NCBI GenBank assembly: GCA_041660305.1
Contig: JBAZWO010000001.1
Span: 113,909 to 177,908, forward strand
DNA length: 64,000 nt
Direction: 5' to 3'
DNA from: Patescibacteria group bacterium
GTDB taxonomy: Bacteria > Patescibacteriota > Patescibacteriia > UBA9570
Shown here: positions 1,492-58,198 of the stretch, piece by piece
Layout: every line of letters begins with the position of its first letter
How positions within the stretch are numbered: the stretch's first letter is position 1
Notes under the pieces: generated by a model
What the model was told of the DNA's origin: nothing
Seen by the model: the letters and a program-made list of their open reading frames with translations, nothing else
Databases searched by the model: none
Translations under genes and position numbers: made by a program

Positions 1492-2319
1492 TTAAGCCAG
1501 GAAATACATACCAATTAAGAACGCCGCGATCCCGGCAAGAATCGCAATGATCGCCCACTGCTCGTTGGTCACCGCATCGATTCCGGTTTTAGCCGGAATG
1601 GCGGGCTGAGCGGGCGGGATCTCGATCTTGACGACCGCGGTTGCTGGCTCGGGATCCGGCTTGGCCTTCTTGGCTTCTTCGAGTTGCTTACGCAACTCTG
1701 CCAACTCGGCCTCACGCCGACTTTCCGTTGCCTTACGCGCGATCTCAGCTTCTGTCGCCTTCCGATCCGCTTCCACCTTCTGGAGCCGCTCACGCAGCTC
1801 CTTGGTTTCAGCTTCGGCTTGCTCGCGCGCCGCTTTTTCCTCGGCCAGCTTGCGCTGTGCCTCGGGTTCGGTCTGAACCGGATGCACGGACTCGCGGTCC
1901 TTGCGGAGAACGGAGAACCGGCCGGCAGAGCGGGGAGTCGACTCCTCAGGGGCAGGGGTGGGCTCGGATTTTCCCATCACGCTCTCCCGCACCTTCTTGG
2001 TATCAACGGTCTTGAACAACTCCTCCAGATGGAGGGCGTCACCGTCAATGACCTTGAAGGAAGCGGGAGGTGCGGTAACGGGCGTTTCCGAAGTGAACGT
2101 TGAAATCATTTCGTCCGCCCTTACCTCGGCCTTGCAGCCATAGCTGGTTCGCTTGTTGGCGTGTTCAACCGACAGTTTGCCTTCATCCGTGAAGATGATA
2201 TGGCTTTCCGTACGGTCTGCGTCCAACAGAACGATCAGCAGCACTGCGAACTCGATGGCCGAAGGGGTGTAACCCTCCGGCAGTGCGCGGACGACTTTTC
2301 CGACTGTCAACGAACTCAT
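1492..2319 (-). CDS. tail-anchored coiled-coil protein with N-terminal globular domain
   Basis: ATG at 2317-2319 with GGAGG seven nucleotides upstream (MSSLTVGKVV...). The middle is a charged coiled coil (EAQRKLAEEKAAREQAEAETKELRERLQKVEADRK...). A C-terminal TM helix WAIIAILAGIAAFLIGMYFLA closes the protein. GC-rich. Confidence 0.5.
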   Translation of the reverse strand: MSSLTVGKVVRALPEGYTPSAIEFAVLLIVLLDADRTESHIIFTDEGKLSVEHANKRTSYGCKAEVRADEMISTFTSETPVTAPPASFKVIDGDALHLEELFKTVDTKKVRESVMGKSEPTPAPEESTPRSAGRFSVLRKDRESVHPVQTEPEAQRKLAEEKAAREQAEAETKELRERLQKVEADRKATEAEIARKATESRREAELAELRKQLEEAKKAKPDPEPATAVVKIEIPPAQPAIPAKTGIDAVTNEQWAIIAILAGIAAFLIGMYFLA

Positions 2320-2551
2320 GATAGACCTCCTTTTACTGTAAGAACCTGCCTCCAATCCGCGGATTTGCGGATGGAGGCTACGTTGATTGAACATGTTGCA
2401 CTAAGCTAGTGATATCCTAGAATCTAAGATACCGTTAGCTTAGTACAGACATGCTCTGTAAAAACTTTTTTCATATATTTGCCTATTGTGTGTTGTCAAA
2501 GTACATCCGCCTACGCCCCTTGCGGGACTTCGGCGAGACGCGTCCGATTAT

Positions 2552-2613
2552 CTCCCTCTTCCTCCTCTCCCCCTTCTCCTAAATTAGGAGAAGGGGGTCG
2601 GGGGGTTGAGGTG
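2552..2613. repeat. GC-rich nested-palindromic intergenic repeat (family A copy)
   Basis: cccccttctcct-aaatt-aggagaaggggg hairpin followed by ggggggttgaggtg. Confidence 0.7.
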
Positions 2614-2760
2614 TTTATATCGAACTGTCAGGGATAGATACAAGCATAAGCCTATATCCATCCATCTGACAGCTCAATACAATCCATCCAGCTGCTTGCC
2701 CGCCGTAGTCCTTCGTAGCTTTTAGCGGAGAAGGACGTAGGGGGGACAGCTCGGTACAAG

Positions 2761-2865
2761 CAACCTACCCTACCTCCCGGCCTCCTCCCCTCTAAAGGGA
2801 GGAGGAGAATTTCTCCCCTCCCTCTTTATAGGAGGGAGGGGCCGGGGGTGGAAGGTAGAATGAAA
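2761..2865. repeat. family A repeat copy (two hairpins)
   Basis: cctcctcccctctaaagggaggagg and cccctccctctttataggagggagggg. Confidence 0.7.
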
Positions 2866-2986
2866 AAGGCGCATTCTCGCGATCTACTAGGACGCAATTC
2901 TGACCACCGTTTACATCTATATATATTGTATATAGCTGGGAGCGGCTGCTAAATTGCTAGATCGTATTGAAAATACGCCTTTTTCA

Positions 2987-3032
2987 CTCTTCTCCCTCCC
3001 TTTGCAGGGGAGGGTTGGGGTGGGGTCTGTAA
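2987..3032. repeat. family A repeat fragment
   Basis: ccctccctttgcaggggaggg hairpin plus a G-run. Confidence 0.55.
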
Positions 3033-3228
3033 TTATCGGGTCCTAGACCGATAAAGTTAATTATTGATTTTAAAGAACTAAACACTATAATACTTTTTTA
3101 TGATTCTGTCAATAGCCTGGGAATGGTGGGCTGTGGATATCACAAAAAATACCTAAAAATAGCAATTTTTGACCAACCTAGAAATTTTTGCTATTATCCT
3201 TTTGTCCAACCACAATTAATTATTAATT

Positions 3229-3684
3229 ATGGTTTTTATGCAAGTACAGCCGGTGAATATTAGCCCAACCAATGCCGATTTAATGTTGGCTATCCAACAA
3301 AATAATCGGAAATTAGATCAGCACATTAAAGAATCCGATACTAATCGTATGGAAATTTTATTGGCAATTAACGGTTTTGCTAATTATATGCAAGATAACA
3401 TGGTTACCAAAGAAGAATTTGGCGTAGTAAAACAAGATGTATCAGTGCTCAAACAAGATGTATCGACATTAAAACAAGATGTTAGTGAATTAAAACAGAA
3501 TGTAGCGGTATTAAATAAAAAAGCTAATGATACCGAAATTATTTTAGATGGCATTGCTACCAATGTTCATACCATTCAAACCGATCATTCTTTTGCCATT
3601 GAATGGCTAAAAAGCCATGATAAAAAATTAGACACGCATGAAGCTGACATTAAAAACTTACAGTTTCAATTAGGTTCGATTTGA
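3229..3684 (+). CDS. coiled-coil protein with tandem heptad repeats (KQDVSxL x4)
   Basis: 151 aa with VKQDVSVLKQDVSTLKQDVSELKQNVAVL. Same architecture as the paralogs at 33027 and 35621. Confidence 0.6.
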   Translation: MVFMQVQPVNISPTNADLMLAIQQNNRKLDQHIKESDTNRMEILLAINGFANYMQDNMVTKEEFGVVKQDVSVLKQDVSTLKQDVSELKQNVAVLNKKANDTEIILDGIATNVHTIQTDHSFAIEWLKSHDKKLDTHEADIKNLQFQLGSI

Positions 3685-3936
3685 AATACAGCTAGAATCA
3701 CAGATGGCGCAGATAAAATGCTGATTGCACAGATAAATTCAATTAATTAATTGTATTATCTGTGCTATCAGAAATTAATATCTGTGTAATCTGTGATTCA
3801 AGCATTTTGACCACATTATTCTATATTTGTCAATATATACGAGTGTTAAGACGTAAAAAAACTCGCTAATCACTGGTATAAAGAATCGGAACATAGTTGG
3901 GATGTAGTTTTTTGAAATTATCAATGAGTTTTATTT

Positions 3937-4266
3937 ATGGCTAAAAAAAGAATACTCCCAAAGGCAATAAGCCCATACGTTACAGCGTATTTAACTGTGT
4001 TAAAGGAACAACGTAAATTACCAATTACGGCCGCTTATGTATTTGGTTCGTGGTCAAAAGGCACACAACACGAAGATAGTGATATTGACATGTGTATAAT
4101 TTCACCAAAATTAACCGGCTGGATGAGAAGAGTAGATAAATTATCACCTGTGCCCTACTCTGATTTATTTATTATCGAACCACATGGTTTCACCCCCAAA
4201 GAATTTGACCCAAAAACAGACCCCTTAGCCTACGAGATTGTGAAGTATGGGATTAGGGTGATTTAG
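3937..4266 (+). CDS. minimal nucleotidyltransferase (MNT antitoxin-type), solo
   Basis: GSWSKGTQHEDSDIDMCIIS matches the GS...DxD polymerase-beta nucleotidyltransferase signature. Paralog of 32275..32601. No HEPN partner is adjacent. Confidence 0.75.
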   Translation: MAKKRILPKAISPYVTAYLTVLKEQRKLPITAAYVFGSWSKGTQHEDSDIDMCIISPKLTGWMRRVDKLSPVPYSDLFIIEPHGFTPKEFDPKTDPLAYEIVKYGIRVI

Positions 4267-4280
4267 AATAATAATTCTCA

Positions 4281-4607
4281 GTGATTCAAACATTCAGTAA
4301 AACATGTTACAATATAAGTATGGATAAAGATATGTTAATAAAAACAGTTGTTCAGCTTATTCAGCATGAGCTACCCAATAATTATCGTGTTATATTGTTC
4401 GGTTCCTGGGCAAAAGGTAATGCCCTGCCTGCCTCCGATATGGATTTCGGCATTATTGGTGAACAAGCCTTGCCTTGGGAAAAATATTTATCAATAAAAA
4501 GACAACTAGATAGCATTCCTACGTTGCGCAGTATCGATTTAGTAGATATGAATAGAGTAGATGAACATTTTAAAAAAAATGCCCTGGCATATGCTCAATA
4601 TTTATAA
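4281..4607 (+). CDS. nucleotidyltransferase (MNT, HI0073-like antitoxin)
   Basis: ILFGSWAKGNALPASDMDFGII nucleotidyltransferase motif, directly upstream of a HEPN gene. Confidence 0.75.
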   Translation: MIQTFSKTCYNISMDKDMLIKTVVQLIQHELPNNYRVILFGSWAKGNALPASDMDFGIIGEQALPWEKYLSIKRQLDSIPTLRSIDLVDMNRVDEHFKKNALAYAQYL

Positions 4608-4615
4608 ATAATATT

Positions 4616-4987
4616 ATGCGAGAAATTATTGAATCTTTCGAACAATCCATTAATCGATTAAAAGAAATTTTGCAAGAACAACCAACGATTGCTAATCGTG
4701 ATTCGGCTATTAAGCGTTTTGAATTAACTTGCGAGTTAGCTTGGAAATCATTACAAAAATATTTACGTGAAGAAAAAATTCTTTGTTATTCACCAAAAGA
4801 TTGTTTAAAACAAGCTTTTAAGCTTAATTTAATTCAAGATGATGAACGTTGGTTAAATATGATTGAAGATAGAAATTTATCCGTTCACGTGTATGATGAG
4901 TCTTTTGCCATAGAACTTTATAAGCGTTTACCAAATTACCTGTCTATATTTGAACAGTTATTAAAAACTTTTAAATCGAAATTGTGA
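4616..4987 (+). CDS. HEPN domain protein (HI0074-like nucleotidyltransferase substrate-binding / HEPN toxin)
   Basis: 123 aa, helical, with an R-x4-H-x-Y motif in DRNLSVHVY. Forms an MNT-HEPN pair with 4281..4607. Confidence 0.7.
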   Translation: MREIIESFEQSINRLKEILQEQPTIANRDSAIKRFELTCELAWKSLQKYLREEKILCYSPKDCLKQAFKLNLIQDDERWLNMIEDRNLSVHVYDESFAIELYKRLPNYLSIFEQLLKTFKSKL

Positions 4988-5005
4988 AGTGCGAGATTAA
5001 AGTGT

Positions 5006-5072
5006 TTCAATTATAAAACCCCACTAGACTGTATAGATGCAACTCTGTGCAATCTAGCCTAGTGGGGGTTTA
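5006..5072. terminator. putative bidirectional intrinsic terminator
   Basis: aaaaCCCCACTAG ... CTAGTGGGGgtttattttttt: a 9-bp stem flanked by an A-run and a T-run, just after the HEPN stop. The loop is long at about 31 nt. Confidence 0.45.
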
Positions 5073-5194
5073 TTTTTTTATTATTCCGCTAACCTCATCT
5101 TAAACTTATTGAAAGATAAAGTTACTGGGATATGGCTCAATTCGTCGTGTACAAGTACAGACAAGGCTGAGCCGGAACCTTAGAAAGGAACAAA

Positions 5195-5215
5195 GAGGAT
5201 TTTTTGGAAAAAAGG
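5195..5215. repeat. left terminal inverted repeat of GC-rich island (GAGGATTTTTTGGAAA)
   Basis: Reverse-complement partner at 9029-9048 (TTTCCAAAAAAAATCCTC). GC content jumps between these two sites. Confidence 0.5.
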
Positions 5216-5222
5216 CCGCCGG

Positions 5223-5966
5223 CTACTGGCTGCGGCGCAGACGGATCTCGATCCGTCGCCGCGCCTGGTCATTCCGCTGTTTGGTAGTCCCGGTCGCGAG
5301 AGAACCATCAGGCATCTGGGTCTGACCGGCCGATAGCGGCAACACCTGCAGTTTGCCACCCGTGATACGAGTGTCATTCAGCAGGAACTTGGCCACCGTC
5401 ACGGCTCGGGACAAACCCAGATCAGCGTTCGACCCTAAGGCCACGATCTCGTTGGCTTGTCCACTCAAGAACAGGAGCAAGTCCCGATCGAGAGTGGACA
5501 TCTTTCCGTACATAACCGTTTCGTCGGTATGTCCGACTACTTCGATTATGTCCGTGCCATAGGTCGCGGCCAACGTCAGAATTTGCGGGACGATCTTATC
5601 CCGCAGCTTTGCCTCGAAAGTGGCATCAACGTCCGCAGATCCGGACGTGAACGACCAACCACCCGCTTCGGACAGCGCGATGATGGGAGGCTGATCGTTC
5701 TTGGCCTCGGCCTGAAGCTTCTTCAACTTCTCGGCGTCCATGCCGAGTTTTTTTAGCTCCTCGGCCATGGCGCACACCTGCGCCTCGAGCTTTTTGTTTC
5801 TCTCGACGACCTCCTGTGAGGTCGTTTTTGCCAGGTTCTCCTGCAGCCGGTTGGCGTTGGCTGCAAGGATCATGTTTCCTATCATGGAAAGTGTTAGCAA
5901 AAGCAGAAGCACTTCCCAGCCCATGAGCGACTGGAGAAGTGCAGTGTTTCGTTGGTGTGCTGCCAT
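5223..5966 (-). CDS. MotB/OmpA-like protein (one N-terminal TM, coiled coil, OmpA-type peptidoglycan-binding C-terminal domain)
   Basis: C-terminal domain shows GHTDETVMYG...NADLGLSRAVTVAKFL...RRIEIRLRR, the OmpA_C signature. TM helix WEVLLLLLTLSMIGNMILAA. Its ATG overlaps the upstream stop (TAATG). Confidence 0.75.
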   Translation of the reverse strand: MAAHQRNTALLQSLMGWEVLLLLLTLSMIGNMILAANANRLQENLAKTTSQEVVERNKKLEAQVCAMAEELKKLGMDAEKLKKLQAEAKNDQPPIIALSEAGGWSFTSGSADVDATFEAKLRDKIVPQILTLAATYGTDIIEVVGHTDETVMYGKMSTLDRDLLLFLSGQANEIVALGSNADLGLSRAVTVAKFLLNDTRITGGKLQVLPLSAGQTQMPDGSLATGTTKQRNDQARRRIEIRLRRSQ

Positions 5967-6616
5967 TAATTTTTCCCCCCAGCATTCTGGTCAGGGAAAA
6001 AATCATTCAGATCCACCAACAACTTTCCAATTCCCGCGACCAGTACCCGGAACGCCTCGAGATCACCATTGAGCGCGTCCGAGTTCAGACGAGCTCGAGA
6101 CAACGACGTCCGCAATGCTTCCACCTCGGCCGTCACCGCTCCGATATTGCCGCTCCCGCCACCAACATTGCCCGTGTTACCACCACCACTTGCCGATCCG
6201 CCTCCGGAAAGCCCATCGATATAGTTTAGGGCCACCATACAGGTGAGCCCTATTGCCACCGACATCAGACCCTCCATCAGTGGAGCAACGATCTGACCGA
6301 CGGGCATGTCGGTCAGAGCTTTTGTTTTTACCCCGTCGAACACGATCCCCAAGGAAACTGCAAGAGCAGCAACCAGAGAGATAATGCCAATGGCTTGAAC
6401 CAAGGTAGCCACGGCGGTCAGTTGGACAGGATATTCCGTAGGGTCGTTTCTCAAAAACCACCTAACAGAAGTCACTGTGATAAAGATCATTCCCCCGAAT
6501 GCGGCTATGGGGAAGAGAACCTTCATCACGTTCAGGCTGCCAGAGAACCAGGACACGAGGAGCGCGAGCACAATCGCCACGAGAACTGGCAGCACTCGCC
6601 GAATGAGAAACTTCAT
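5966..6616 (-). CDS. MotA/TolQ/ExbB-like four-TM membrane protein with Gly-rich cytoplasmic tail
   Basis: 216 aa with four predicted TM helices; the last two are spaced like a MotA/ExbB family channel. AGGAGG ribosome-binding site. Tightly coupled to the OmpA-like gene downstream. Confidence 0.5.
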   Translation of the reverse strand: MKFLIRRVLPVLVAIVLALLVSWFSGSLNVMKVLFPIAAFGGMIFITVTSVRWFLRNDPTEYPVQLTAVATLVQAIGIISLVAALAVSLGIVFDGVKTKALTDMPVGQIVAPLMEGLMSVAIGLTCMVALNYIDGLSGGGSASGGGNTGNVGGGSGNIGAVTAEVEALRTSLSRARLNSDALNGDLEAFRVLVAGIGKLLVDLNDFFPDQNAGGKN

Positions 6617-6624
6617 GTCACCTC

Positions 6625-7680
6625 CTACTTTTTGCCATCCGTGAGCAGCTTATTACCGAAATCTTGCGATCCGGAAGACAACTGCCCAGCGTATTTTGCC
6701 ATGTAGTCCTGTACCACCTTTTTTCCGGCCACACCGCCACCCTTGAGGGCGGCCAGAATGGCCATCACGGCCATGTCCCGAACTGCCTCGGACCCGTCCA
6801 AGATTCCGCACTGCCCACCGCCGGCTTTGGCGATGGCCTTGAAGTTCTCGAGCGCGAGAGGGCTACCCTCTTTGCACTCGGAATCCTCGGGATGCGGAAC
6901 GTGGAACGTGTGGATGATGACCTTGCTGTCGCGAAGAGTCTTGGCGACATCGGTCGCGACCCCGTTTGGAACGGGGTATCCTCGCTTCCGATAGTACACC
7001 AGTTCCTCTGCGCTGTGGGCACGGGCATCACCAATTATCAGCACCATGTCCACCACATCCTGCATCTGCACCACTTCGTTCAACCCGTATTCCAGAGCCT
7101 CGGGGTAAGGATATGGATCCTCTCCCCGCTCTCCACCGCCGGCCGCGTAGATACCGCGCAACCACTGCTTGATCTGGCCGGGGTCGTTTCTGAATCCGGA
7201 ACGCTCGATGATCTTGCTGTCACCATAGTCTCGATATGCGATAACCTCGACCTGAAGACGCTCTCCGGCCTGCTCTCTTGCCCGCATGACAATGTCATCC
7301 ATCTGATTCCGGACGCCATTGATGGTGGGTTGTTGAGAACCTGTGGCATCGATGAGGATCACGACCTTGCCCTCTTTCTGGGCCGAGGTCTGCTCTTCCT
7401 TCGCCTGCTGGCCTGCCTGCCGATACCGAGCCATACGATCTTCCTGAGACTCAGACAGCCGACCGACGGCGGTTGACTGAGGCTGCTGCCTGGCCACACC
7501 AGTTACGGTGCTTCCAGGCAGAGCCTTGGGCCCGCTGCCACTGCTGGAGCTCTGCTGGGCACTTCCCGGAGGAAGCGCGCGCTGAGGCTGCTGCTGGCCG
7601 CTGCTGCTTGCTGCTTGCTGCTCGGGGTTCTTTTTTTCTACGTCCTTGTCTCCACCACGAAGCTTGCTAAAAAGTCCCAT
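6625..7680 (-). CDS. von Willebrand factor A (vWA) domain protein with Gln/Ser-rich N-terminal region
   Basis: VVILIDATGSQQ is a MIDAS-like D-x-T-x-S, followed by VEVIAYRDYGDS and MVLIIGDARAH beta-strand motifs typical of the vWA fold. AAGGAG ribosome-binding site. Confidence 0.6.
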   Translation of the reverse strand: MGLFSKLRGGDKDVEKKNPEQQAASSSGQQQPQRALPPGSAQQSSSSGSGPKALPGSTVTGVARQQPQSTAVGRLSESQEDRMARYRQAGQQAKEEQTSAQKEGKVVILIDATGSQQPTINGVRNQMDDIVMRAREQAGERLQVEVIAYRDYGDSKIIERSGFRNDPGQIKQWLRGIYAAGGGERGEDPYPYPEALEYGLNEVVQMQDVVDMVLIIGDARAHSAEELVYYRKRGYPVPNGVATDVAKTLRDSKVIIHTFHVPHPEDSECKEGSPLALENFKAIAKAGGGQCGILDGSEAVRDMAVMAILAALKGGGVAGKKVVQDYMAKYAGQLSSGSQDFGNKLLTDGKK

Positions 7681-7691
7681 CGTTCATCTCC

Positions 7692-8972
7692 TTATTTCTT
7701 CGGTTTTCCCTTATCAAGGGTCGCTCTATGCTTAGCAGCGTCCTTGAACAAACGTTCATGCTCTTCGCGCTCCTTGGGAGGAGCGGAGGTATGTCTGTCC
7801 GGATGGTGCTTGAGAGCCATCTTGCGATACGCCTTTTTGATTGTCTCAGCGCTATGCTCGGTGTCCCGAGCATAGCCGAAGAAATCGCAAGCGTCGCACC
7901 AGGCTTGCCAGTCCTTGTCGAACGTGGAAGCCTGTTTCGGATCTTGCCACTTGCCGCCACCATACTGCGCCTGGATCTGCTTGATAAAGGCGTCAATGTC
8001 GCCCCGTACTTGAGCGAGTGACTCGAGCAGTTCAATTACCTCGTCTAGCGACGAGGCATCGTGCACTGCTTTTTCGAGCCGCTCTTTCTCAACAACGAGA
8101 CCGTCCATCAACGCTTCGTTGGCCTTAACCCAGTCCAAAACCTTCTGCTTGCGCATCAGGTCCGGATTCTGAGCCGGCCAATACTGCAGCATCCAGGCGA
8201 TCTGGCCGCCCAGAACGGAGATGAGAAACTGAAAGTTACCCCATTCCTTCTGGAAATCGACCAGTAGAGACCGTGCTTCATTGGCTTCCTCAAGAGAAAG
8301 CCCTGTGGGGTTCGAACTGAACGGCTTGAGCATCTTGAGAAACTGCTCGAAAGCCGCCAGCTGAATTTTTCCACGGAGCCCCTCCGCCTCGGGCACCACC
8401 GCTAACATGATTCTGGCGGTGTCGAGGAGTGTTTCAGCCTGCTGGTGATTAGCCATGTGCATAGCTGAAATAATTTGGTCACGCGAACCGTCCGACAGCC
8501 TACCCCGAAACTCACCGAGCTCGAGGAGGATGCCGATAACCTGGTTGAGACGTACAAACTCCGCCGGGGACTTGGCGCGTATACGATCCACGTTGATCCC
8601 GTAAGCGGAGCAGAACTCCCGGAATGCCTGAACCGGCCCCGGGTGAGTCGCTAAAAGCTGAAAGTACTCACCCGGTATCCACTCCAGCCCCAGCCGCGCG
8701 AACAGAGCATTTGCAGCTCGTTTTTGCAACCGAGGCAGAGCGGGGTGTGCCGTAGGATCAAAACGAGCGAGTCGCGACCGTTTGGGAACCCCGCCGATGC
8801 CGGATCCCGAAACGCGCTGCACCCGCTGCTTGGCCTGCGGCCCGACAGACTGTGGGGTTGAAGGGTCAGGGACCCCCAACCGCCGTCGAAGCCCAATAGG
8901 CAGACGGTGGCCGAGGGCGAGAAGCACACTCAAGAACCTCTTGAGTAGCTCCTCTAGGGCGGACTTAATCAT
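7692..8972 (-). CDS. large helical protein with C-terminal DnaJ J-domain (HPD motif)
   Basis: C-terminus SAETIKKAYRKMALKHHPDRH is a canonical J-domain. Start chosen at MIKSALEEL, with GGGAGG four nucleotides upstream. The ORF track extends to 9050. Confidence 0.8.
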   Translation of the reverse strand: MIKSALEELLKRFLSVLLALGHRLPIGLRRRLGVPDPSTPQSVGPQAKQRVQRVSGSGIGGVPKRSRLARFDPTAHPALPRLQKRAANALFARLGLEWIPGEYFQLLATHPGPVQAFREFCSAYGINVDRIRAKSPAEFVRLNQVIGILLELGEFRGRLSDGSRDQIISAMHMANHQQAETLLDTARIMLAVVPEAEGLRGKIQLAAFEQFLKMLKPFSSNPTGLSLEEANEARSLLVDFQKEWGNFQFLISVLGGQIAWMLQYWPAQNPDLMRKQKVLDWVKANEALMDGLVVEKERLEKAVHDASSLDEVIELLESLAQVRGDIDAFIKQIQAQYGGGKWQDPKQASTFDKDWQAWCDACDFFGYARDTEHSAETIKKAYRKMALKHHPDRHTSAPPKEREEHERLFKDAAKHRATLDKGKPKK

Positions 8973-9028
8973 CGAACCTCCCTTGTGGCCATTCGTTAGC
9001 CACGTTTTTCGTTTTCTAAAATCAAAAA

Positions 9029-9048
9029 AATTTCCAAAAAAAATCCTC
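9029..9048. repeat. right terminal inverted repeat of GC-rich island
   Basis: TTTCCAAAAAAAATCCTC is the reverse complement of the left repeat at 5195-5212, allowing for T-run length. Confidence 0.5.
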
Positions 9049-9103
9049 AATTTTCAACGATCAAGCCTGTAACAAAGATATTATCCTTGCCAGGCTAATT
9101 TAA

Positions 9104-9204
9104 GCGGAGGATATCTCTTCACCCTAACCCCTGGGTTCCCGCCTGCCTCCTTAGACGGAGTACGGCGGGCAGGTACCCCAGTGGGTTAGAAGAGAGCTCT
9201 GCTT
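9104..9204. repeat. GC-rich nested palindromic repeat (family A variant)
   Basis: ctaacccctgg ... ccagtgggttag outer arms and a cccgcctgcc ... ggcgggcagg inner arm. Confidence 0.55.
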
Positions 9205-9405
9205 AAATCAACCGAGCAAAAAGCACAATACCACCTTATTTTAGGTTATTTATTATAATTTTTGGTAGGTAATGTGGTTCATATAAGAACGAGCCAGAAT
9301 ATCACTTTTTTTTGATTTTGTCAATACCAAATCTGTTTAGCACCATATTATTGTATATTTGTCAATATATACGTGTGTTAGTTAGCTTGTTATAATAACA
9401 ATATT

Positions 9406-9717
9406 ATGAGTACAAAACAGCTGAATGATATTGTAAAAACCATTACTAAAGAAATACAGCCAGAACAAGTGGTGTTGTTTGGTTCACAAGTATGGGGTAC
9501 TCCTCACATAGGTAGCGATATTGATTTATTAGTAGTAGCCAATACTACTGGTAAAATGGAGTATTTACGTAAAATACGCCAAGTTTTATTTGGCCACAAC
9601 TTTCCGCCGATAGATTTAATCACCTATTCAGCCTCGGAAATTAAGCAGCGTATTACTCAAGGCGATAGTTTTTTGGCAGAAATTATGAACAGAGGCAAAA
9701 TAGTTTATGAACGCTAA
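9406..9717 (+). CDS. nucleotidyltransferase (MNT antitoxin)
   Basis: VVLFGSQVWGTPHIGSDIDLLVV. Overlaps the downstream HEPN gene by 11 nt. Confidence 0.75.
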   Translation: MSTKQLNDIVKTITKEIQPEQVVLFGSQVWGTPHIGSDIDLLVVANTTGKMEYLRKIRQVLFGHNFPPIDLITYSASEIKQRITQGDSFLAEIMNRGKIVYER

Positions 9718-10123
9718 TATTTTGCCGATCATTGTTCAAGAATGGCTAGACAAAGCTAATAATGATGAATTAAACGCTCAATCAATTTTAAAACATAAAG
9801 ACGGCACACCAAGTGGTGTTTGTTTTTTGTCGCAACAAATGGCTGAAAAATATTTGAAAGCTTTTTTAATGTTTCATAAAAAACCATTACAAAAAATCCA
9901 TGCGTTAGATCGGTTATTAGAATCTTGCATTGAAATAAATAATGATTTAAGCACACTGAAAGATGATGTAATTTTTTTAACAGATTTCTATATTTCCACA
10001 CGTTACCCAGCTGATATACCGGATTCATCCTGGAATGACGCTGAACATGCTCTAACGGCCGCTAAGCATGTAAAAGATGTAATAATAAAAACATTAGCAT
10101 TATCAGCGTCATCAGAAATTTAA
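9707..10123 (+). CDS. HEPN domain protein (PF05168-like)
   Basis: QQMAEKYLKAFL and a C-terminal ISTRYPAD motif typical of HEPN. Paired with the MNT gene upstream. Confidence 0.7.
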   Translation: MNANILPIIVQEWLDKANNDELNAQSILKHKDGTPSGVCFLSQQMAEKYLKAFLMFHKKPLQKIHALDRLLESCIEINNDLSTLKDDVIFLTDFYISTRYPADIPDSSWNDAEHALTAAKHVKDVIIKTLALSASSEI

Positions 10124-10140: not shown

Positions 10141-10950
10141 TCAGCGTTTCAAATGATCCTGCATGCTCACTGGCTCATCTGGTTTGCCGTCTACCGCGTT
10201 AAAACGATCTAACACTTTATATTGTGGGGGTTCCACTGGTTCCACGATGGTAGAGACGCCCCGGCGGGGCGTCTCTACCTTGTTGGGCAACGTCTCTACC
10301 TTAGGTGTTTCTACAGGGGATTCCTGTGGGAACGCGATATATCGCGTTCTCTTCGCCTCAAATTTTAACAAATAATACGTATAAGACGCTAACAAGCCTA
10401 GCGCGCCAGCGGCTGCTCCATTGAGTGGTATATTTGGTTTTACTGGTCTATTACTAGTAACCGGCCCTTCAATTTGTTTTATGTATACGCTATCTCCCCC
10501 ACCATAATAATCAGAGGAGTTAGTAGTTAACACCTGCGCAACACCGGTAGCAATGCCTTCCGCGTTAGCAGGATTAGTGCCATAACCAAATATTTTAATA
10601 ATACCGGTTTCTGGCACTACTTCGGCGCTTACCAGTTTTTCCCAAGCACTTTTTTTATCATTCGAATCGATACTAAACTGCTCTGGTTTTACCTGGCCAG
10701 TTTCTAATACTCGATTCAAAAAATCTAGTGAAGTAATTACGTTTACCAAGCTGTTTCCCAAGCTAGCGGCCGCCCGTTGCGCTGTGTAGGAATCTACCGT
10801 AGCGCTTTGCTTTTGCACAATTAGTAAATCTACTTCCGATTTATATAATTGATCGGGAATAAACGATAAACCAACGGCAATAGCCGCGCATACTAACGTG
10901 CTGCATGTTATTACTAGCCAGTGTTCTTTAATCAGAAGTAAATAACGCAT
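10141..10950 (-). CDS. Wzz-like polysaccharide chain-length determinant protein (TM-periplasmic-TM)
   Basis: N-terminal TM plus a C-terminal TM (GAAAGALGLLASYTYYLLK). The C-terminal region carries an in-frame copy of the palindrome GTAGAGACGC...GCGTCTCTAC. Confidence 0.55.
   Translation of the reverse strand: MRYLLLIKEHWLVITCSTLVCAAIAVGLSFIPDQLYKSEVDLLIVQKQSATVDSYTAQRAAASLGNSLVNVITSLDFLNRVLETGQVKPEQFSIDSNDKKSAWEKLVSAEVVPETGIIKIFGYGTNPANAEGIATGVAQVLTTNSSDYYGGGDSVYIKQIEGPVTSNRPVKPNIPLNGAAAGALGLLASYTYYLLKFEAKRTRYIAFPQESPVETPKVETLPNKVETPRRGVSTIVEPVEPPQYKVLDRFNAVDGKPDEPVSMQDHLKR
10250..10323. repeat. family B perfect palindrome (GTAGAGACGC-ccccggcgggg-GCGTCTCTAC) plus two degenerate half-copies, inside CDS
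   Basis: 29-bp perfect palindrome at 10250-10278. Other copies are at 16646-16673 and 29766-29793. Confidence 0.8.
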
Positions 10951-10958
10951 AAATTTAT

Positions 10959-13900
10959 TTAGCCTTGCAATGTAGCATTTAAAATGTCTTTACCATCGAA
11001 TTCAACTTTATGTGGCAACAAACCTCGTTCTAAGGCGTGTTGAATAACACTAAGGGCTTCTTTAGCAGCCGGATCACCAGCCGAAGCATGCTTAGAAATA
11101 TCTTGAGCTACATCTACCCAACGCTGCGCTTGAGCGAGCAAACCTGAATTGCGTTCAAAGCCAAGTGAAAAATGTAAAAGAGGTTCACCATGATGCCCAG
11201 CTATTTCAGCAACCGGATAATGTGGCTTTAACACTCCGGATATTTTATCCATGGCTCTATGCATGCCTTCTGCTACTGCTTCCTTAATCTGGCCAACACT
11301 ATTGGAAGCACTCACATGAATAGGTTCCACCCCAGCTACTTTGGTAGATATATCAATCTGCGCCATTTTTCCTATTACTTCCTCTTTAAAATAAACACCA
11401 TGTTCATAACGTCCTTTACACGTAGAAAAACTATCTTCGACTTGTTTTAATAATTGTTTAGCCTGCCAGATAGTTTCAGCTGGTGCCCGCTGCGCTTTAT
11501 AATCAGCCAACATATCCTGCATTTGTTTTACTTGTTGTTCTTGAGCAATAATATCTTTAATCGCTCCTACTCTCATTTCTGGCGGAACAAACTTGCCTGA
11601 GAGCGGTTCTCCATAATGGCTTAAATCAACATCATTATATTTTAATCCATTATTATATGGCGCAACAATTTTATCCCAATCTGCCGTGCCTGGTTTTACG
11701 GAAATTACTTCTGCTACACCATCATTATTATGCACGTAAAAATATTCTGGCTGGTGGGTAATTGGATTCGTTACTTGGCGTAACGGTTCATCAAATGGTT
11801 CATAATCGGAAGAAACATATAAATCTGTTTCTAAACCTTCCATGCTTGTACCAGGATTAGTACCTACCGCCGGAAAATGATAATCTACACCATGAAAACG
11901 TTCTGGGTGTTGCAACATATCAGTTTGGGTATGTGCCCACTGTTGCTCAGAAGTTAAAGCCTGCTCAATGCCGTGCGGATTCAGATCAGCACGTGCCCCA
12001 GCTGGTTCTACAGAATTACCAGCCCCATGCCCAACCCCGTGTCCGTGCGGCAAATCCACCGCTGGTGCCTGGTCACCGGCCTCAAACGAATAATGCGCCT
12101 GGCCGTCACTGCCTACATTAGCCACCACTTTATCACCTTCATGCGTTAAATTATACCACTGTCCTTTACTTTTTAATTCCTGCATTGCGTTAGCAAATTC
12201 TTTCTTCACCCAAGCCGATTCGCTTATATCGGAACTTTTATCATAACCTAATTCTTTCGCGTTTTGCCGGATTAAATGCAATAATGATCTTGACTCAAAA
12301 TCCTTACCACTTGTGCCGGTAATTTCATCTTCAATTTTTACCATTGGCGCAGTATGATCTGGAGTCAACGTACCAGCTTCTTGCGCTCGAGATAAATCTT
12401 CCCGAACAGCGGCTGCTGCTCGCTGAATTTGCTCGTTAGTAAATGGCCGATCAATAATTTCCTGACGATCCTTAGCCCATTGTTTTTGAAAATTGGATTC
12501 TGTCTGAGCAGTGGCTCGTTGTGCTAACCATTCATTGAGTTCGTGCATGCCAATGGCACCCAAAGCCGCTCCGGCTACACCGCCAGCTACTTTATAGCCT
12601 AATTTAACATGATCAAATTGTTTTTGTTTTTCATAATGCTCTACAATATGATCATTCTGCTGGGTGGCTAACCCTAAGCTCATTCTAGCATCGTTAACTA
12701 ATAATTCTTCTAACCGTTGCGCTTCAGTTTGTAAACGAACATATTCTATTGAACGCTGGCCTTGTTCATTGGTTTGGGCTTTAACATATTTTGGATTATT
12801 TAATTGTTCACGCACTTGCGCTAATTTTAAGCTTAACTCTTTCGGTGAAGTTACCTTATCAATATCATGTAATTCCTTAGCGGTAATAGCGCTGGCATAC
12901 TCTGCGCCCATAACTGCACTAGCCCGTTTTGTACCAACTTTTTCACCTAACATCATGCCCAGCTTACCACCAGCTAGTGCTCCAGTATATACACGTAATC
13001 CAGGTACATAGCGAGTGGCTATACCAACGCCAGCAAATAAAAATGCTTGGATAGATTTTTCTGTAGTTGTATTTTTTCCAACCCCTAACGTAAGTACATT
13101 AGCTACTCGTTTTACCCAGCTATTATCCAGAGCCTTAGCCATTTTACCTGGCTGATTATGTTGCATATCTGCCTCAAATAAATCGTTACCAGCTTCTACT
13201 AAATATAGTTTTTTTACTGCTTCCGCCATTTGTTCAATAGGCTTAATCATTTTTTCCCAGGCATCTTTCTTGTTTTTATCTGTCGGATTGGCATCGTAAT
13301 CATCTCGAATAGCTTCATAATTAGCTATGCCATAACGCTTGGCTAATTGATCCAATGAGCCACGTTCAATTTGGTTGGCTCGTTGTGATATTAAATGATC
13401 TAAACCAGTTTTAAAAGCACCTTTATCTTTATCCTTCGCTGCAACGTATTGTTTAGTAGTATTTTCTATTGAAACTTCTAATGGCACGGTACCGTCACGT
13501 TTGGTTTTAACTTTTTGTTCCACCGCCACGGCAATTCTGGCTAACACATCGTTAACACATTGTTTATATTTATCGCTATCTGTTTTTTCTAATTCAGAAC
13601 GAATACCTTTTTCTTGTTTTACCGCGCCTTTTTTATCACGAAAATGTTCGTGCAAATTAAATACCATTCTGGCAGCCAACGCACCAGCCGCTCCAACTGC
13701 AAACGCTGGCATAGCTACAGCTAAGGTAGTAGCTGCCAAACCAGCCCCAATACCAACACCGGCTATGGTGCCAATTTTTCCGGCCGTCCGCCAAAAGCTT
13801 TTAGGTACCGCTGTCTGCTGATCGGCTCTAGCCTGTTCATACACCTGCTGATCCTGCATTAAAAACATCAGCTGCGCATCTGTTTCTGCCAAGCCAATAT

Positions 13901-15836
13901 GATCGGCTAAATTTTTTAGTTCAGCCGCATCTAATTTTAATACTGTACCTGCTTTACCAGCATCTTTATTAGCTAAAGCACTAATTAATTTTTCTATGTA
14001 TTTTTTTAAATCTCCGCCTTTAGCCAATTCCGCTTCCAAATTTTTCATTACAGCATACTTGTCCTTAGCTTCGTCACGTTTCGCTGTTTCCATGCGCACT
14101 GTATTTAATAATTCTTTAGTATTCGGTTGATCAGTAAATTTTTTGGCGGCACAGCTAGTTTCAATAGCCGCAATAAACCCATCATGAGCCTTTTTAATGT
14201 CGGCCGGATCTTTCACGTCCACTGTAATTTCCGCACCACCTTCCTCTAATTGATAAGTTACTACCGTTTTATCTTTATCAACATGCAATTTAAATACCGC
14301 TGGTTTATCAGCGTATTTTGCTTTCGTAGTTGGATTTACTGTATAATCACGCGTGAGTGTGTAATTTATTTCCGTATCTTTTTTATCTTCTTTTGCTTTA
14401 CCAAGTGCTAAATATTCTGGTATTTCTTTACCAATTACGCCAACGCCTGGCAAATTCCATTCATCAGCAGCTACTGGACTATCTACTAATTTTTTAGCTT
14501 CGGCTTCTAATGCTGCTTTAGCTGCGGCAGTTTCTAATTTGGCTTTTTTTTCAGTACAGAATTTTTCGGTTTCTTTAACAAATTTATCATTAAATATACT
14601 TTGTAATACACCAGCATCATTGGCTTTTAATTTTTGCGCTTTAGCACTATCCGCTACTTTATATTCCACAGCCGCCGGCTTATTTGGTTCAATCACTATT
14701 TTAAAATAAGCGCCCGTAGAACTATAGGCCCTATCTTTGTATGGTTTAGTTAATGTAATGGTTCTAGATTTTCCTGCACTAACACTTTCAGAAATACTAC
14801 CACTATCCAAATAGTCATCTAATGATAACTTTAAACTTTCATTATTAGCTAAATCGATTTGTTCATCATGAGCGTCGGTTAAATATTTTTCTATGGTACT
14901 AGTTAAATCTGCTTCATCTTTTTCTTGTTTAACTTTTTTATCGGCTTCCGTTTTAATAAAGTTAGTTACTTCACTTTGAAAATTTCTATATTCACGTACC
15001 GCGGCTGCTGGATTAGGTGCTGGTTTAGGACCAACGGTTCTGCCACCATATGCTGTATACTCAATAGTTACTCCATGGTCTGTTACTAACATAGTAAATT
15101 CAGCTGGCACAGCACTTAGTGCTGGCGTTCCTTCGTATGGCTGTATATAATTATAAGCTATGCTATCGCCTATAGAAGCCGCTCCACTAAAATCAGAGCG
15201 TGTTAATTCAGCATGACCTAATTCTGGCAAATCCAACGCCGCAAAAGCTTTCCCACCAATTTCCCAATTTACATCTCCGTCTTTAAAATTGGTAACGTAT
15301 CGCTTATCAAGATCTTTTATCTGTTCTGCCGGTATTCCTTTGCGAGCTACTTCTTGAGCATTAACTACACCAACCATTTTAGCTTGATAAATCCGTTCAG
15401 TTTCCTTAGCTAAATCATCCAGCTGTTTTATTAATTGTTCATTATCAATTGTAAAACCTGTTATTAAAGTCATATCAAGAATATCTCTTAAATCAGATTT
15501 GAAACGTTGTTCGGCTCGTTCAATAACCTTTTGTAATTCTACCAAAGCTGCTTTAGCTGTGTCTTTAGCTAATTCTACATTTTCTTTAGCAGTAATTATT
15601 TTGTCTTCCGTGTCAGCGTCTTTCAATTCTTTACTAGCAGCTTTAAATGCATCACGAGCAGCATTTACATCTTTAACCGCTTGTTCCGCGCGCCCAACAA
15701 AACGTTGCCGTTGTTCGGCTGGATTAATAGCATCACCTGCACTCACTGGAGCACTACCAGCAGCTGAATCTGGTTTTGCTTTTTTCTTTTTCTCGTCTTT
15801 TTTATCTTTTTTTAGATCTTTATCGTGTTTGCCCAT
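10959..15836 (-). CDS. giant protein (1625 aa) with internal glycine-zipper TM segments
   Basis: Single uninterrupted ORF. Lys-rich N-terminus and no signal peptide. Three Gly/Ala-rich hydrophobic segments (GTIAGVGIGAGLAATTLAVAMPAFAVGAAGALAA, AFLFAGVGIATRY, VAGGVAGAALGAIGM). A His/Gly-rich region occurs near residue 1190. Confidence 0.6.
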   Translation of the reverse strand: MGKHDKDLKKDKKDEKKKKAKPDSAAGSAPVSAGDAINPAEQRQRFVGRAEQAVKDVNAARDAFKAASKELKDADTEDKIITAKENVELAKDTAKAALVELQKVIERAEQRFKSDLRDILDMTLITGFTIDNEQLIKQLDDLAKETERIYQAKMVGVVNAQEVARKGIPAEQIKDLDKRYVTNFKDGDVNWEIGGKAFAALDLPELGHAELTRSDFSGAASIGDSIAYNYIQPYEGTPALSAVPAEFTMLVTDHGVTIEYTAYGGRTVGPKPAPNPAAAVREYRNFQSEVTNFIKTEADKKVKQEKDEADLTSTIEKYLTDAHDEQIDLANNESLKLSLDDYLDSGSISESVSAGKSRTITLTKPYKDRAYSSTGAYFKIVIEPNKPAAVEYKVADSAKAQKLKANDAGVLQSIFNDKFVKETEKFCTEKKAKLETAAAKAALEAEAKKLVDSPVAADEWNLPGVGVIGKEIPEYLALGKAKEDKKDTEINYTLTRDYTVNPTTKAKYADKPAVFKLHVDKDKTVVTYQLEEGGAEITVDVKDPADIKKAHDGFIAAIETSCAAKKFTDQPNTKELLNTVRMETAKRDEAKDKYAVMKNLEAELAKGGDLKKYIEKLISALANKDAGKAGTVLKLDAAELKNLADHIGLAETDAQLMFLMQDQQVYEQARADQQTAVPKSFWRTAGKIGTIAGVGIGAGLAATTLAVAMPAFAVGAAGALAARMVFNLHEHFRDKKGAVKQEKGIRSELEKTDSDKYKQCVNDVLARIAVAVEQKVKTKRDGTVPLEVSIENTTKQYVAAKDKDKGAFKTGLDHLISQRANQIERGSLDQLAKRYGIANYEAIRDDYDANPTDKNKKDAWEKMIKPIEQMAEAVKKLYLVEAGNDLFEADMQHNQPGKMAKALDNSWVKRVANVLTLGVGKNTTTEKSIQAFLFAGVGIATRYVPGLRVYTGALAGGKLGMMLGEKVGTKRASAVMGAEYASAITAKELHDIDKVTSPKELSLKLAQVREQLNNPKYVKAQTNEQGQRSIEYVRLQTEAQRLEELLVNDARMSLGLATQQNDHIVEHYEKQKQFDHVKLGYKVAGGVAGAALGAIGMHELNEWLAQRATAQTESNFQKQWAKDRQEIIDRPFTNEQIQRAAAAVREDLSRAQEAGTLTPDHTAPMVKIEDEITGTSGKDFESRSLLHLIRQNAKELGYDKSSDISESAWVKKEFANAMQELKSKGQWYNLTHEGDKVVANVGSDGQAHYSFEAGDQAPAVDLPHGHGVGHGAGNSVEPAGARADLNPHGIEQALTSEQQWAHTQTDMLQHPERFHGVDYHFPAVGTNPGTSMEGLETDLYVSSDYEPFDEPLRQVTNPITHQPEYFYVHNNDGVAEVISVKPGTADWDKIVAPYNNGLKYNDVDLSHYGEPLSGKFVPPEMRVGAIKDIIAQEQQVKQMQDMLADYKAQRAPAETIWQAKQLLKQVEDSFSTCKGRYEHGVYFKEEVIGKMAQIDISTKVAGVEPIHVSASNSVGQIKEAVAEGMHRAMDKISGVLKPHYPVAEIAGHHGEPLLHFSLGFERNSGLLAQAQRWVDVAQDISKHASAGDPAAKEALSVIQHALERGLLPHKVEFDGKDILNATLQG

Positions 15837-55621: not shown

Positions 55622-56752
55622 TTAAATTTGTGAAAAAATTTCCAATATTTGCCGCGCGGATTTTTGCCAAGCGTAATTTTTAATTACCGCCTGGCCAGCT
55701 TGGGTTAACTGCGCACGCAATGCTGTGTTGACGTCAAATTCGTGCAGAGCGGCTGATATTTCCGCTACGGAATACGGATTAATATAATAAACTGCATTTT
55801 GTAATACTTCCGGCAACGCACCAACGTGGCTGGCAATCACCGGTACGCCATATTGCAAAGCTTCCAGTGGCGGAAAACCGAAGCCTTCGTAAATGCTGGG
55901 ATACAGCAAGCCGATAGCCTGCTGTAAAATAGCGGCTTTTTGCGCCGCGGTAACATAGCCTAAATAATGCGCGCGTGGTGTAGTTTGAATAGCTTGCAGA
56001 ATTTTTTTAGATTTCCAGCCAGCTGAACCAACTACCACTAAATGCAAATCGCTCGCTTTATGTAATGCACAAAAATGCTGAAACGCTACTAAGCTGGCTA
56101 ACACGTTTTTGCGCGGCTCCAAGGTAGCCAACAATAAAATATAGCGTTTAGGTAAATCGAGTAAATTAATATTAGTTTCGGTTGGGCTTGCTGTAACTGC
56201 TTCCGGTACGCCCGGATAAATCACTGTAATTTTGTCTGGTGATATTTTATACACCTGTTCTAAATCATGCTTAGTGGTTTGCGAAACCGCAATTAAATGC
56301 TTAGCCCGTTGAAATAGTTTACGGCTACATACGGCCCGATGCCACATGCGTCGGCGCCAAGATAAAAATTCCGGAAACAGCGCGAAACTTAAATCATGCA
56401 CCGTTAATATTAATGGTATATTTTTCGATAACGGCAAAAAATGCAAATTCGGCGCAAACCACCCGTCTACTCCGCCCACAATTTTATCCAGCCGCGGCGC
56501 TAAGCCAAGCCAGGCTAAGCCGTGATAAAACTTGTTCGGCCAGCGCCAGTGCACTAATTTAACGTTTTTATATCTAGCCAATGCCTGTAATCGGCTATTA
56601 TCAGCCAAGTTAACCGACCAGCCGCTGAAAAACAATTTAAACTCGTGATCCGGCACCAGCTCCACCAAATTTTTCACGATATGCCAAACATAAGTCCCCA
56701 CCCCCGATGGCTCCCTGTCCGTTAAAGATCTAACATCAATGCCAATGCGCAT
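55622..56752 (-). CDS. glycosyltransferase family 4
   Basis: EGFGFPPLEALQYGVPVIAS. Confidence 0.75.
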   Translation of the reverse strand: MRIGIDVRSLTDREPSGVGTYVWHIVKNLVELVPDHEFKLFFSGWSVNLADNSRLQALARYKNVKLVHWRWPNKFYHGLAWLGLAPRLDKIVGGVDGWFAPNLHFLPLSKNIPLILTVHDLSFALFPEFLSWRRRMWHRAVCSRKLFQRAKHLIAVSQTTKHDLEQVYKISPDKITVIYPGVPEAVTASPTETNINLLDLPKRYILLLATLEPRKNVLASLVAFQHFCALHKASDLHLVVVGSAGWKSKKILQAIQTTPRAHYLGYVTAAQKAAILQQAIGLLYPSIYEGFGFPPLEALQYGVPVIASHVGALPEVLQNAVYYINPYSVAEISAALHEFDVNTALRAQLTQAGQAVIKNYAWQKSARQILEIFSQI

Positions 56753-56961
56753 AGGGAAAGCATAGAATAAAGCATTAATTAAAACAACCCTTCGACTAAG
56801 CTCAGGGTTATTTTAGTTCTTCTGGGTATAAATATTTATTAATATTGCTACGCAAGAGAACTGGAACGAGAATATAGAGACGAAATGACCTCCTTAAGGA
56901 TGTCTCTCCCCCCGTTCCACGTCTCCGACCAATTTCGGAGCAACACCCTCTTGTAAGGATG

Positions 56962-56990
56962 AGCGGCACGCCTGTTTGCCGCTTTTTTTT
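56962..56990 (+). terminator. orphan plus-strand intrinsic terminator (possible 3' end of a small RNA or small-ORF transcript)
   Basis: AGCGGCAcgcctgttTGCCGCTTTTTTTT. No plus-strand CDS lies within 1.3 kb upstream. Confidence 0.55.
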
Positions 56991-57047
56991 CGTCGTCGTC
57001 GTTTTCAGTCGTCGTCCCCGGGCTTCAGGTCACCCGGGTAGTTCGTG

Positions 57048-57959: not shown

Positions 57960-58198
57960 CACCTTCTCCTATTTCGTGCCATTCTGTAACAAAAAAGCAT
58001 CGAGCGCGGCACGGACGCTGCGACGCTTTACGAACAACGAAAAATTTTGTTCAAAACAAATGAATAAGGTTTATAAATATATAACAAAAAAATGACTATA
58101 AACATCATTCCTCTATCTTCAAATTATATGTAAAAGAGCAATTGTTACATATAAATTGTAACGCATCACCTTAACTAATTTTTTGGTTTTTGTCAATA

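Follow-up and report, generated by a model that had tools for sequence, protein, structure and literature searches.

A GC-rich four-gene cassette in a Patescibacteria genome: a probable, undescribed relative of the anti-phage system Zorya

Introduction

What might a stator-like membrane pair do when it is encoded in one operon with a soluble von Willebrand factor A (vWA) protein and a J-domain co-chaperone? This question is raised by a GC-rich cassette of four genes, located at positions 5223–8972 of a stretch of 64,000 nucleotides (hereafter referred to as the window; positions 113,909 to 177,908 of contig JBAZWO010000001.1, assembly GCA_041660305.1) and carried on a 491-kb contig of a Patescibacteria metagenome-assembled genome. 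I refer to the products, in gene order on the minus strand, as the J protein, the vWA protein, protein A and protein B. The cassette probably represents a relative of the anti-phage system Zorya that has yet to be described. The reading that I favor, and to which I give a probability of about one half, is that of a horizontally mobile, Zorya-like conflict module, whose output would run through the host chaperone DnaK instead of a nuclease.

In Zorya and other 5:2 motors, five copies of an A subunit surround two copies of a B subunit, and ions flow via an acidic residue of B once B has bound peptidoglycan; in the case of Zorya, the signal is then relayed to soluble effectors by the ZorA tail in the cytoplasm (PMC11946911, PMC11890865). 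Zorya biology has yet to explain how these ion-driven motors transfer the signal to partners in the cytoplasm, and the cassette described here would be a minimal version of this problem. Protein A possesses only ∼210 residues, with a tail helix of ∼50 residues, and the biochemistry of its soluble partners is well understood, which makes the coupling step directly testable. A vWA domain binds ligands through a metal site, and the J-domain module attaches to Hsp70 (DnaK) and stimulates its ATPase activity. Should the cassette prove to be a defence system, the Hsp70 chaperone would join the immune effectors or guarded host hubs, and Zorya-type sensing would operate in the ultra-small, outer-membrane-less Patescibacteria. 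If it is not, it would still represent a new class of partner for stator-like complexes.

Results

The four open reading frames (ORFs) follow one another in the same orientation on the minus strand and are translationally coupled. The J protein (7692–8972, 426 amino acids) consists of a family-specific helical N-terminal domain of ∼350 residues and a C-terminal J-domain; the vWA protein (6625–7680, 351 amino acids) is predicted to be cytoplasmic; protein A (5966–6616, 216 amino acids) has four transmembrane (TM) helices, and protein B (5223–5966, 247 amino acids) has one TM helix and an OmpA-type domain. The stop codon of the J gene overlaps the ribosome-binding site (RBS) of the vWA gene (TAAGGAG), that of the vWA gene overlaps the RBS of the A gene (TAGGAGG), and the A and B genes overlap in a TAATG. 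An earlier note on this DNA had described a tightly coupled four-gene minus-strand operon, and both the ORFs and their junctions were found as claimed, together with all the motifs quoted there (KKAYRKMALKHHPDRH, DATGS, GHTDE, NADLGLSRA and RRRIEIRL). Its 427 amino acids for the J protein need a small correction, since the ATG placed behind a GGGAGG RBS, also used in public gene calls, gives 426; the canonical J-domain assigned to this protein stands. An alternative start, TTG at 9050, would yield 452 amino acids.

In the cassette genes the GC content is 54–59%, with 60–70% at the third codon position; the remainder of the window has 38.6%, and the toxin-antitoxin genes on either flank have 33%. 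Overall, this sets 57% against 39%, in agreement with the earlier description of the cassette as GC-rich. The region 5101–9400, encompassing the cassette and both junctions, is 100% identical across three independent assemblies. This rules out a chimeric assembly as the source of the GC jump, which is therefore real and points to horizontal acquisition; on these sequence grounds, the cassette appears to be mobile. Two 18-nucleotide arms of an imperfect inverted repeat (15/18 complementary, 83%) coincide exactly with the left (5188–5205) and right (9038–9055) GC boundaries. These could be the remnant of an insertion or, the arms being AT-rich, a chance match.

An exhaustive HMMER search with protein A retrieved only 13 clusters among 1.84 billion representative proteins, all of 207–240 amino acids and matched across nearly their full length. 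Word-based searches retrieved nothing but the query for protein A, and the query, one true relative and one marginal match for the vWA protein. A profile of the J protein found its own family, followed by generic DnaJ proteins and DjlA, matched via the J-domain only. Contig look-ups and pattern scans recovered 13 distinct loci in which the same families are syntenic, spanning Patescibacteria and diderm bacteria, and the co-occurrence for which the earlier note had proposed a neighborhood search is therefore observed. Judging from these sequences, the four-gene arrangement is far beyond chance. The B gene directly follows the A gene wherever that side of A is covered (12/12 loci), and the vWA gene is upstream of the A gene in 11/12. 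A J gene is present in all five loci with sufficient flank on both sides, and also in the truncated loci L015 and L016; it is either the first gene of the operon (window, L006, L017) or convergent and just after B (L004, L008/L018), and in L016 it is found directly upstream of A. Pairwise identities between family members are 22–43%, which indicates that the synteny is old and has been maintained, as opposed to recently copied. The Patescibacteria hosts are that of the window and Candidatus Uhrbacteria (L006), while diderm hosts are shown by a fragment of a TonB-dependent receptor (L004) and an AsmA gene (L018).

Protein A is the most divergent component. Its four-TM, ZorA/ExbB-like core (6218–6616, minus strand, residues 1–133) is extended by a Gly-rich linker and a cytoplasmic C-terminal helix with a conserved FF at its end (5969–6217, minus strand), and the loop between TM2 and TM3 spans only ∼9 residues. 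When a profile of the A family was compared to 177,635 sequences from the PDB, the sole match in the membrane region was chain 8vvi_F, the type II ZorA of Sulfuricurvum kujiense (PMC11890865), which is the best natural structural match for this part of the protein. In hhalign comparisons, TM3–TM4 of protein A aligns in one register with the conserved channel hairpin of E. coli TolQ, of ExbB and of the ZorA II core, which places the near-invariant Glu115 (6272–6274, minus strand) on E176 of ExbB and E173 of TolQ (P 0.0005–0.005). TolQ, ExbB and ZorA II score 22.8–24.3, whereas none of 12 unrelated TM proteins exceeds 15.3. Conservation across the family is highest at G77 and E115, which lie in the channel-lining hairpin of ExbB and TolQ, and conserved Ser/Glu positions are found in both TM3 and TM4. 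The Pfam family MotA_ExbB (PF01618) matches one of 16 members below threshold (P0009, 15.3 bits vs 22.9, E 0.017), over the same hairpin as in the hhalign register, and none of the other 15. TolQ, ExbB and MotA are among the top 50 PDB matches of the A model in Foldseek, at E 0.3–3, none of them significant.

Several other searches with protein A gave no such link. With a first alignment of three sequences, only designed coiled coils were retrieved from the PDB, and BLASTP fails to connect the A proteins of the window and of L004. No PADLOC ZorA model matches the membrane part of the protein. ZorA matches were obtained for the long-tailed homologue of L008, over the coiled coil only and alongside the SMC-like models LmuB, JetC and PbeC, and were rejected as artefacts of composition. 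Overall, it is very probable that protein A is a strongly diverged ZorA/ExbB-like subunit; the evidence is moderate and falls short of decisive. Of the earlier description of this 216-residue protein, the four TM helices and the Gly-rich part stand. The MotA/ExbB assignment finds no support in curated hidden Markov models (HMMs), and rests on the fold and on weak profile matches that agree in register.

Protein B is more readily placed. A cytoplasmic N-terminus is followed by one TM helix, a coiled coil that differs in length from member to member, and an OmpA-type peptidoglycan-binding domain (5235–5687, minus strand, about residues 94–244). In 12/12 sequences the TM helix opens with an invariant Gly, one variable residue and then Glu or Asp; in the window this invariant acidic residue is Glu18 (5913–5915, minus strand). 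The window protein matches Pfam OmpA at 22.4 bits (below the 27.2 cut-off), an NCBIfam MotB family at E 2e-8 and PADLOC ZorB at E 0.004. Across the family, OmpA is matched by eight of nine members (best 1e-7), and weak ZorB matches recur at E 3e-4 to 0.02. A PDB search with a first alignment of two sequences gave no match, while the profile of the B family retrieved PomB (1e-4), then MotB, then ZorB II (8vvi_A, E 0.15). Its assignment by sequence as a MotB/PomB/ZorB-type subunit is strongly supported.

The vWA protein of the window matches Pfam VWA_4 with 26.5 bits (E 5.6e-6), just under the cut-off of 27, and its relatives carry precomputed VWA_4 matches. From its N-terminus, the protein comprises a conserved MG-x-F-x-K peptide, a disordered linker rich in Q and S, the vWA domain and a helical C-terminal part that is also conserved. 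The domain contains a motif resembling a metal ion-dependent adhesion site (MIDAS), D111-A-T-G-S115 (7336–7350, minus strand); D-x-T-G-S is present in 6/6 members and a downstream G-D in 8/8. No hydrophobic (TM) segment or signal peptide was found in the sequence, and the protein is therefore assigned to the cytoplasm. That it is soluble and keeps the metal-site motif is strongly supported, and metal binding is predicted. Within the N-terminal part (7530–7680 in the window, and in homologues), the initial peptide reads MG-x-F-[DS]-K, and the variable disordered linker carries a short hydrophobic motif, L-[LV]-P-G-[SA], which might serve for docking or be bound by DnaK.

The J-domain of the J protein (7713–7901, minus strand, about residues 358–420) scores 32 bits against Pfam DnaJ, above the gathering (GA) cut-off of 27.8, and the family profile matches the J-domain of E. 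coli DnaJ (1bqz) at E 2e-13. The HPD motif (7797–7805, minus strand, residues 390–392) is invariant in the six aligned members and in L016, that is 7/7. By its sequence this is a true J-domain, functional-looking and predicted to stimulate DnaK. The ∼350-residue helical N-terminal domain has homologues only inside this gene set and no sequence match in the PDB. A structure model computed from two input sequences had a mean predicted local distance difference test (pLDDT) score of 39.6 and was unusable for a fold search. The sequence contains no hydrophobic segment of TM length. Several calls of the earlier note are therefore upheld: the J-domain, now above the Pfam cut-off; the vWA fold, with DATGS as an instance of the conserved D-x-T-G-S; the one-TM protein with an OmpA/MotB domain; and the stator-like character of the A/B pair.

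The genes found next to the cassette are, as far as their sequences tell, typical of defence or mobile islands. At the window, two MNT/HEPN-type clusters stand one on either side. At L004, a type I restriction subunit, HsdR, is immediately upstream; a RelE/helix-turn-helix pair follows B at L017; L018 has ParE, TacA/TacT, a TIR-Sel1 protein, a UvrD helicase and an insertion sequence (IS) element; and L010 has a transposase. One locus directly adjoins an ATP synthase operon. No flagellar genes were found at any locus, and no kinase or PP2C phosphatase genes at the loci inspected. The vWA protein had no match among IMG/VR contigs.

Other features of the window and of related loci

Upstream of the cassette, a promoter-like site on the minus strand (TTGACA-17-TATTCT with TG, 9296–9324) was identified in a consensus scan; it lies ∼320 nucleotides upstream of the J start, and is a match to the consensus only (10/12 positions). 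Between this site and the J gene, the putative leader contains a long GC-rich hairpin of ∼110 nucleotides (9100–9210, minus strand). Its minimum free energy is −59.2 kcal/mol (z −5.3), and 0/200 shuffled sequences are as stable. The hairpin is present in a single copy within the window, in a divergent intergenic region, and has no Rfam match; Rfam and tRNA scans of the window as a whole also gave none. Some stable hairpin is found upstream of J in each of the other loci, with no common sequence.

In the flanks of the cassette, the left cluster (from 3937–4987) has two nucleotidyltransferase (NTase) genes and one NTase-substrate-binding (HEPN-like) gene, and the right one (9406–10123) an overlapping MNT/HEPN pair, both at ∼33% GC. 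Beyond the right cluster, the window encodes a 1625-residue Lys/Ala/Glu-rich protein with internal hydrophobic segments and no Pfam match on record (10141–15836), and then a Wzz-like membrane protein of 269 residues. A second GC-rich island (59.5% GC) occupies positions 1–2400, separated from the cassette by the low-GC toxin-antitoxin cluster. It holds three minus-strand ORFs (28–732, 882–1514 and 1492–2394), the products of which are rich in Ala, Pro and Glu and have hydrophobic anchors. This island (28–2394) was considered as part of the cassette and set aside, its proteins having no relatives at any other locus. A local rise in GC content to 47.6% is also seen at 56001–58000, where the surroundings are at 34–40%.

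In Candidatus Uhrbacteria (L006), a gene on the opposite strand (8350–8724), which I take from its sequence to encode a putative PIN-domain, VapC-like toxin, is inserted between vWA and A, the cassette being otherwise intact. At L018, a block at 1967–6408 encodes a TIR_2-Sel1/TPR protein, an unannotated protein of 308 residues and a UvrD-type helicase of 792 residues. This block may be another defence system.

Discussion

The A/B core is best regarded as a Zorya-like sensor, with the type II ZorAB as its closest solved relative, and a mechanism can be proposed on that basis. By analogy, A and B would assemble in a 5:2 ratio, with five A around two B, into an ion-conducting complex, which would be switched on when the outer domain of B engages the cell wall. 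The trigger, as proposed for ZorAB, could be a local disturbance of the envelope, for example phage entry. The cytoplasmic tail of A would serve as a docking or signaling site for the vWA protein, whose metal site could plausibly contact an acidic residue close to the C-terminal FF that is conserved in A. The N-terminal domain of the J protein may dock at the tail as well, so that the J-domain would load host DnaK onto a client at this place. The output would then be chaperone-driven remodeling or sequestration, not DNA cleavage: DnaK might unfold or disassemble an incoming or assembling phage component, or might be drawn off DnaK-dependent phage processes. The weakest step of this mechanism is the transmission of the signal from the core to the tail. 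Here the Gly-rich linker would favor a tethered docking peptide, the exposure or clustering of which is altered on activation, over a rigid rotary coupling.

A number of observations weigh against a Zorya-like conflict module. Neither a nuclease nor any other effector recognisable as toxic is encoded in the cassette, and the J and vWA proteins are not covered by any PADLOC model. The neighborhood evidence comes from a handful of contigs; in searches of PLSDB plasmids with the vWA protein, only unrelated Rhodococcus "cutinase" loci were retrieved, and protein B had no match in GenBank phages. For protein A, no member of the family passes any curated threshold of Pfam, NCBIfam or PADLOC, and the window protein has no match in Pfam or PADLOC and chance-level ones only in NCBIfam. 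The hhalign probabilities are just 8–32%, and a reversed ExbB sequence reached a score of 19.9 over a short stretch. The model of A has a mean pLDDT of 67, and its Foldseek matches in the PDB are not significant, with TolQ and ExbB at E 0.3–1. Finally, the tail of A is short in most members (∼50 residues of helix) and sits on a Gly-rich, probably flexible linker, and could therefore not pass on rotation as has been proposed for the rigid 70-nm tail of ZorA.

Part of these observations would be explained if the cassette were an accessory sensor of envelope stress or cell-wall integrity and not an immune system, in which the wall-anchored A/B core reports on the state of the envelope and the J protein couples this report to DnaK-dependent signaling or to membrane protein quality control. 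A precedent for such coupling is DjlA, a membrane-anchored protein with a C-terminal J-domain, which links DnaK to Rcs capsule signaling in E. coli. The J-domain of the cassette is C-terminal too, and DjlA is the best non-DnaJ match of the J protein in NCBIfam (E 3.5e-6), but with 26.8 bits this match is far under the cut-off of 162. The lack of a toxic effector domain in Pfam, PADLOC and NCBIfam searches, the apparent flexibility of the tail linker and the locus beside the ATP synthase operon agree with this explanation as well. However, the extreme rarity of the cassette, its patchy spread over unrelated phyla and its foreign GC content would better suit selfish or defence cargo, and its neighbors are mostly toxin-antitoxin, restriction, TIR and IS genes. 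I therefore consider a role in envelope sensing unlikely.

The shortcomings of the evidence on protein A bear on a different possibility, namely that A is an unrelated four-helix membrane protein and that the A/B pair is a static, wall-anchored scaffold, positioning the vWA and J proteins with neither ion flow nor a 5:2 motor. This is what might be expected from the lack of any HMM match above threshold, from Foldseek E-values above 0.3 and from the failure of BLASTP to connect the A proteins of the window and L004. Nevertheless, three independent methods give the same superfamily and the same register, the conserved G77 and E115 are in the hairpin that lines the ExbB/TolQ channel, and the gene that always follows A encodes a stator-B-type subunit, with its invariant acidic residue at the start of the TM helix. 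A mere scaffold is thus rather improbable. I give very little credence to the idea that the pair is the stator unit of a motility, secretion or uptake machine (flagellar, gliding, Tol-Pal or Ton-like), other parts of which are encoded elsewhere. It would agree with the periplasmic domain of B, which most resembles those of PomB and MotB from flagellar stators. At none of the 13 loci, however, are flagellar, Glt/Agl, GldLM, TolA/B/Pal or TonB genes adjacent. In addition, A lacks the cytoplasmic loop of ∼100 residues with which MotA contacts FliG in the rotor, and the constant partners of the pair are a cytoplasmic vWA protein and a J protein. The hosts also include Patescibacteria, which are not known to have an outer membrane that could be energised.

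The reading of the cassette as a mobile, Zorya-like conflict module acting via DnaK can be carried one step further, although only tentatively. The cassette is possibly a fourth kind of Zorya-type immune motor, in which a wall-anchored, ion-driven ZorAB-like sensor is joined, in place of a nuclease, to a vWA adaptor and a dedicated J protein that turn DnaK against the invader, or withhold it. If true, this would be the first bacterial defence system with a general chaperone machine as its output, and it would be found in both Patescibacteria and diderm bacteria.

Comparison with known systems

The cassette resembles the type II Zorya system (PDB 8VVI) in several respects: A possesses a small membrane core and a cytoplasmic C-terminal helical tail, B has the acidic TM residue and peptidoglycan-binding domain that characterize ZorB, soluble partners are encoded in the same operon, and the location is that of a defence island. 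The earlier note had set the two apart because A is far shorter than ZorA, but this is no real distinction, since the membrane core of type II ZorA, the best natural structural match of A, amounts to only ∼100 residues in a protein of 378 (PMC11890865). This places the cassette closer to Zorya than had been held. It differs from Zorya in its partners, a vWA protein and a J-domain co-chaperone in place of ZorC, D, E, F or G, and in having no nuclease. Protein A also has an extra N-terminal TM helix compared to ZorA (four vs three), and a much shorter tail (∼50–200 residues) with its Gly-rich linker. ZorA and ZorB HMMs remain below significance on the window proteins, PADLOC gave no match for the J or vWA protein at E up to 1, and no further genes belong to the operon, in which the reported absence of ZorC/D/E, TolA/B and TonB was confirmed. 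Membership of Zorya types I–III therefore fails, because the defining soluble partners are missing.

With MotAB and PomAB, the cassette shares a four-TM A subunit, a B peptidoglycan-binding domain nearest to that of PomB/MotB, and the acidic residue at the cytoplasmic end of the B helix. Unlike MotA, protein A has no large cytoplasmic domain between TM2 and TM3, and bears a C-terminal tail. The ExbB-ExbD-TonB and TolQ-TolR-TolA systems differ in that the B protein of the cassette is of the OmpA/MotB type, not of the ExbD/TolR type, in that no TonB or TolA is encoded, and in that the cassette is also found in bacteria without an outer membrane.

It had also been stated that none of the flagellar, Tol-Pal, ExbBD and Zorya stator pairs occurs with a vWA protein and a dedicated Hsp70 co-chaperone. 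As regards the vWA protein, this is out of date, since membrane-tethered vWA proteins of the periplasm are known as partners of TolQ-like motors; these vWA proteins are TM-anchored, and proposed to be periplasmic force transducers, or substitutes for the B subunit (PMC12204202). As in these systems, a 5:2-type motor gene is here syntenic with a vWA gene. In contrast, the vWA protein of the cassette has no TM segment or signal peptide and neither of their tethers (a TM helix with an SHLS motif, or a transpore helix with an Asp), a separate B is present, and a J protein is added. A cytoplasmic vWA protein is a component of conflict systems in the TerY-P triad, which in defence loci combines it with a PP2C phosphatase and a Ser/Thr kinase (PMC11090510); the cassette has neither enzyme, and its vWA family (Pfam VWA_4) is a different one. 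The J protein resembles E. coli DjlA, a membrane-anchored type III J-domain protein, in its C-terminal J-domain, presumed action at the membrane and weak NCBIfam similarity, but it has no TM anchor of its own, and a different, family-specific N-terminal domain of 350 residues. In the case of bNACHT25, host DnaJ has been linked to the sensing of phage (PMC12169576).

The claim that this is not a described system is in line with PADLOC v2, which holds no model for it, and with the searchable literature, the coverage of which is incomplete: there, no paper joins Zorya or MotAB with a vWA protein and a J-domain protein or DnaK in one system, and no entry for a "Zorya type IV" or "Zorya-like" system was found.

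Two prophage-like IMG/VR contigs, L021 (3823–8549) and L022 (4140–9458), carry a different ZorAB-like cassette near a CI-repressor gene, which PADLOC does not recognise as a system. It encodes, in this order, a TM/coiled-coil protein of 470 residues, a TM protein of 284 residues, a protein of 414 residues with a weak ZorA2 match, a homologue of B (41–43% identical to that of the window; ZorB1 E 7e-6), and a nuclease, namely a TM-anchored staphylococcal-nuclease homologue. It follows that this A/B-like branch has been combined with different sets of partners, as in Zorya, which supports the view of ZorAB-like sensors as exchangeable front ends for many effectors. Against this background, what is new in the cassette of the window is the effector arm that I infer for it, formed of a vWA protein and a J-domain co-chaperone on a Zorya-like sensor.

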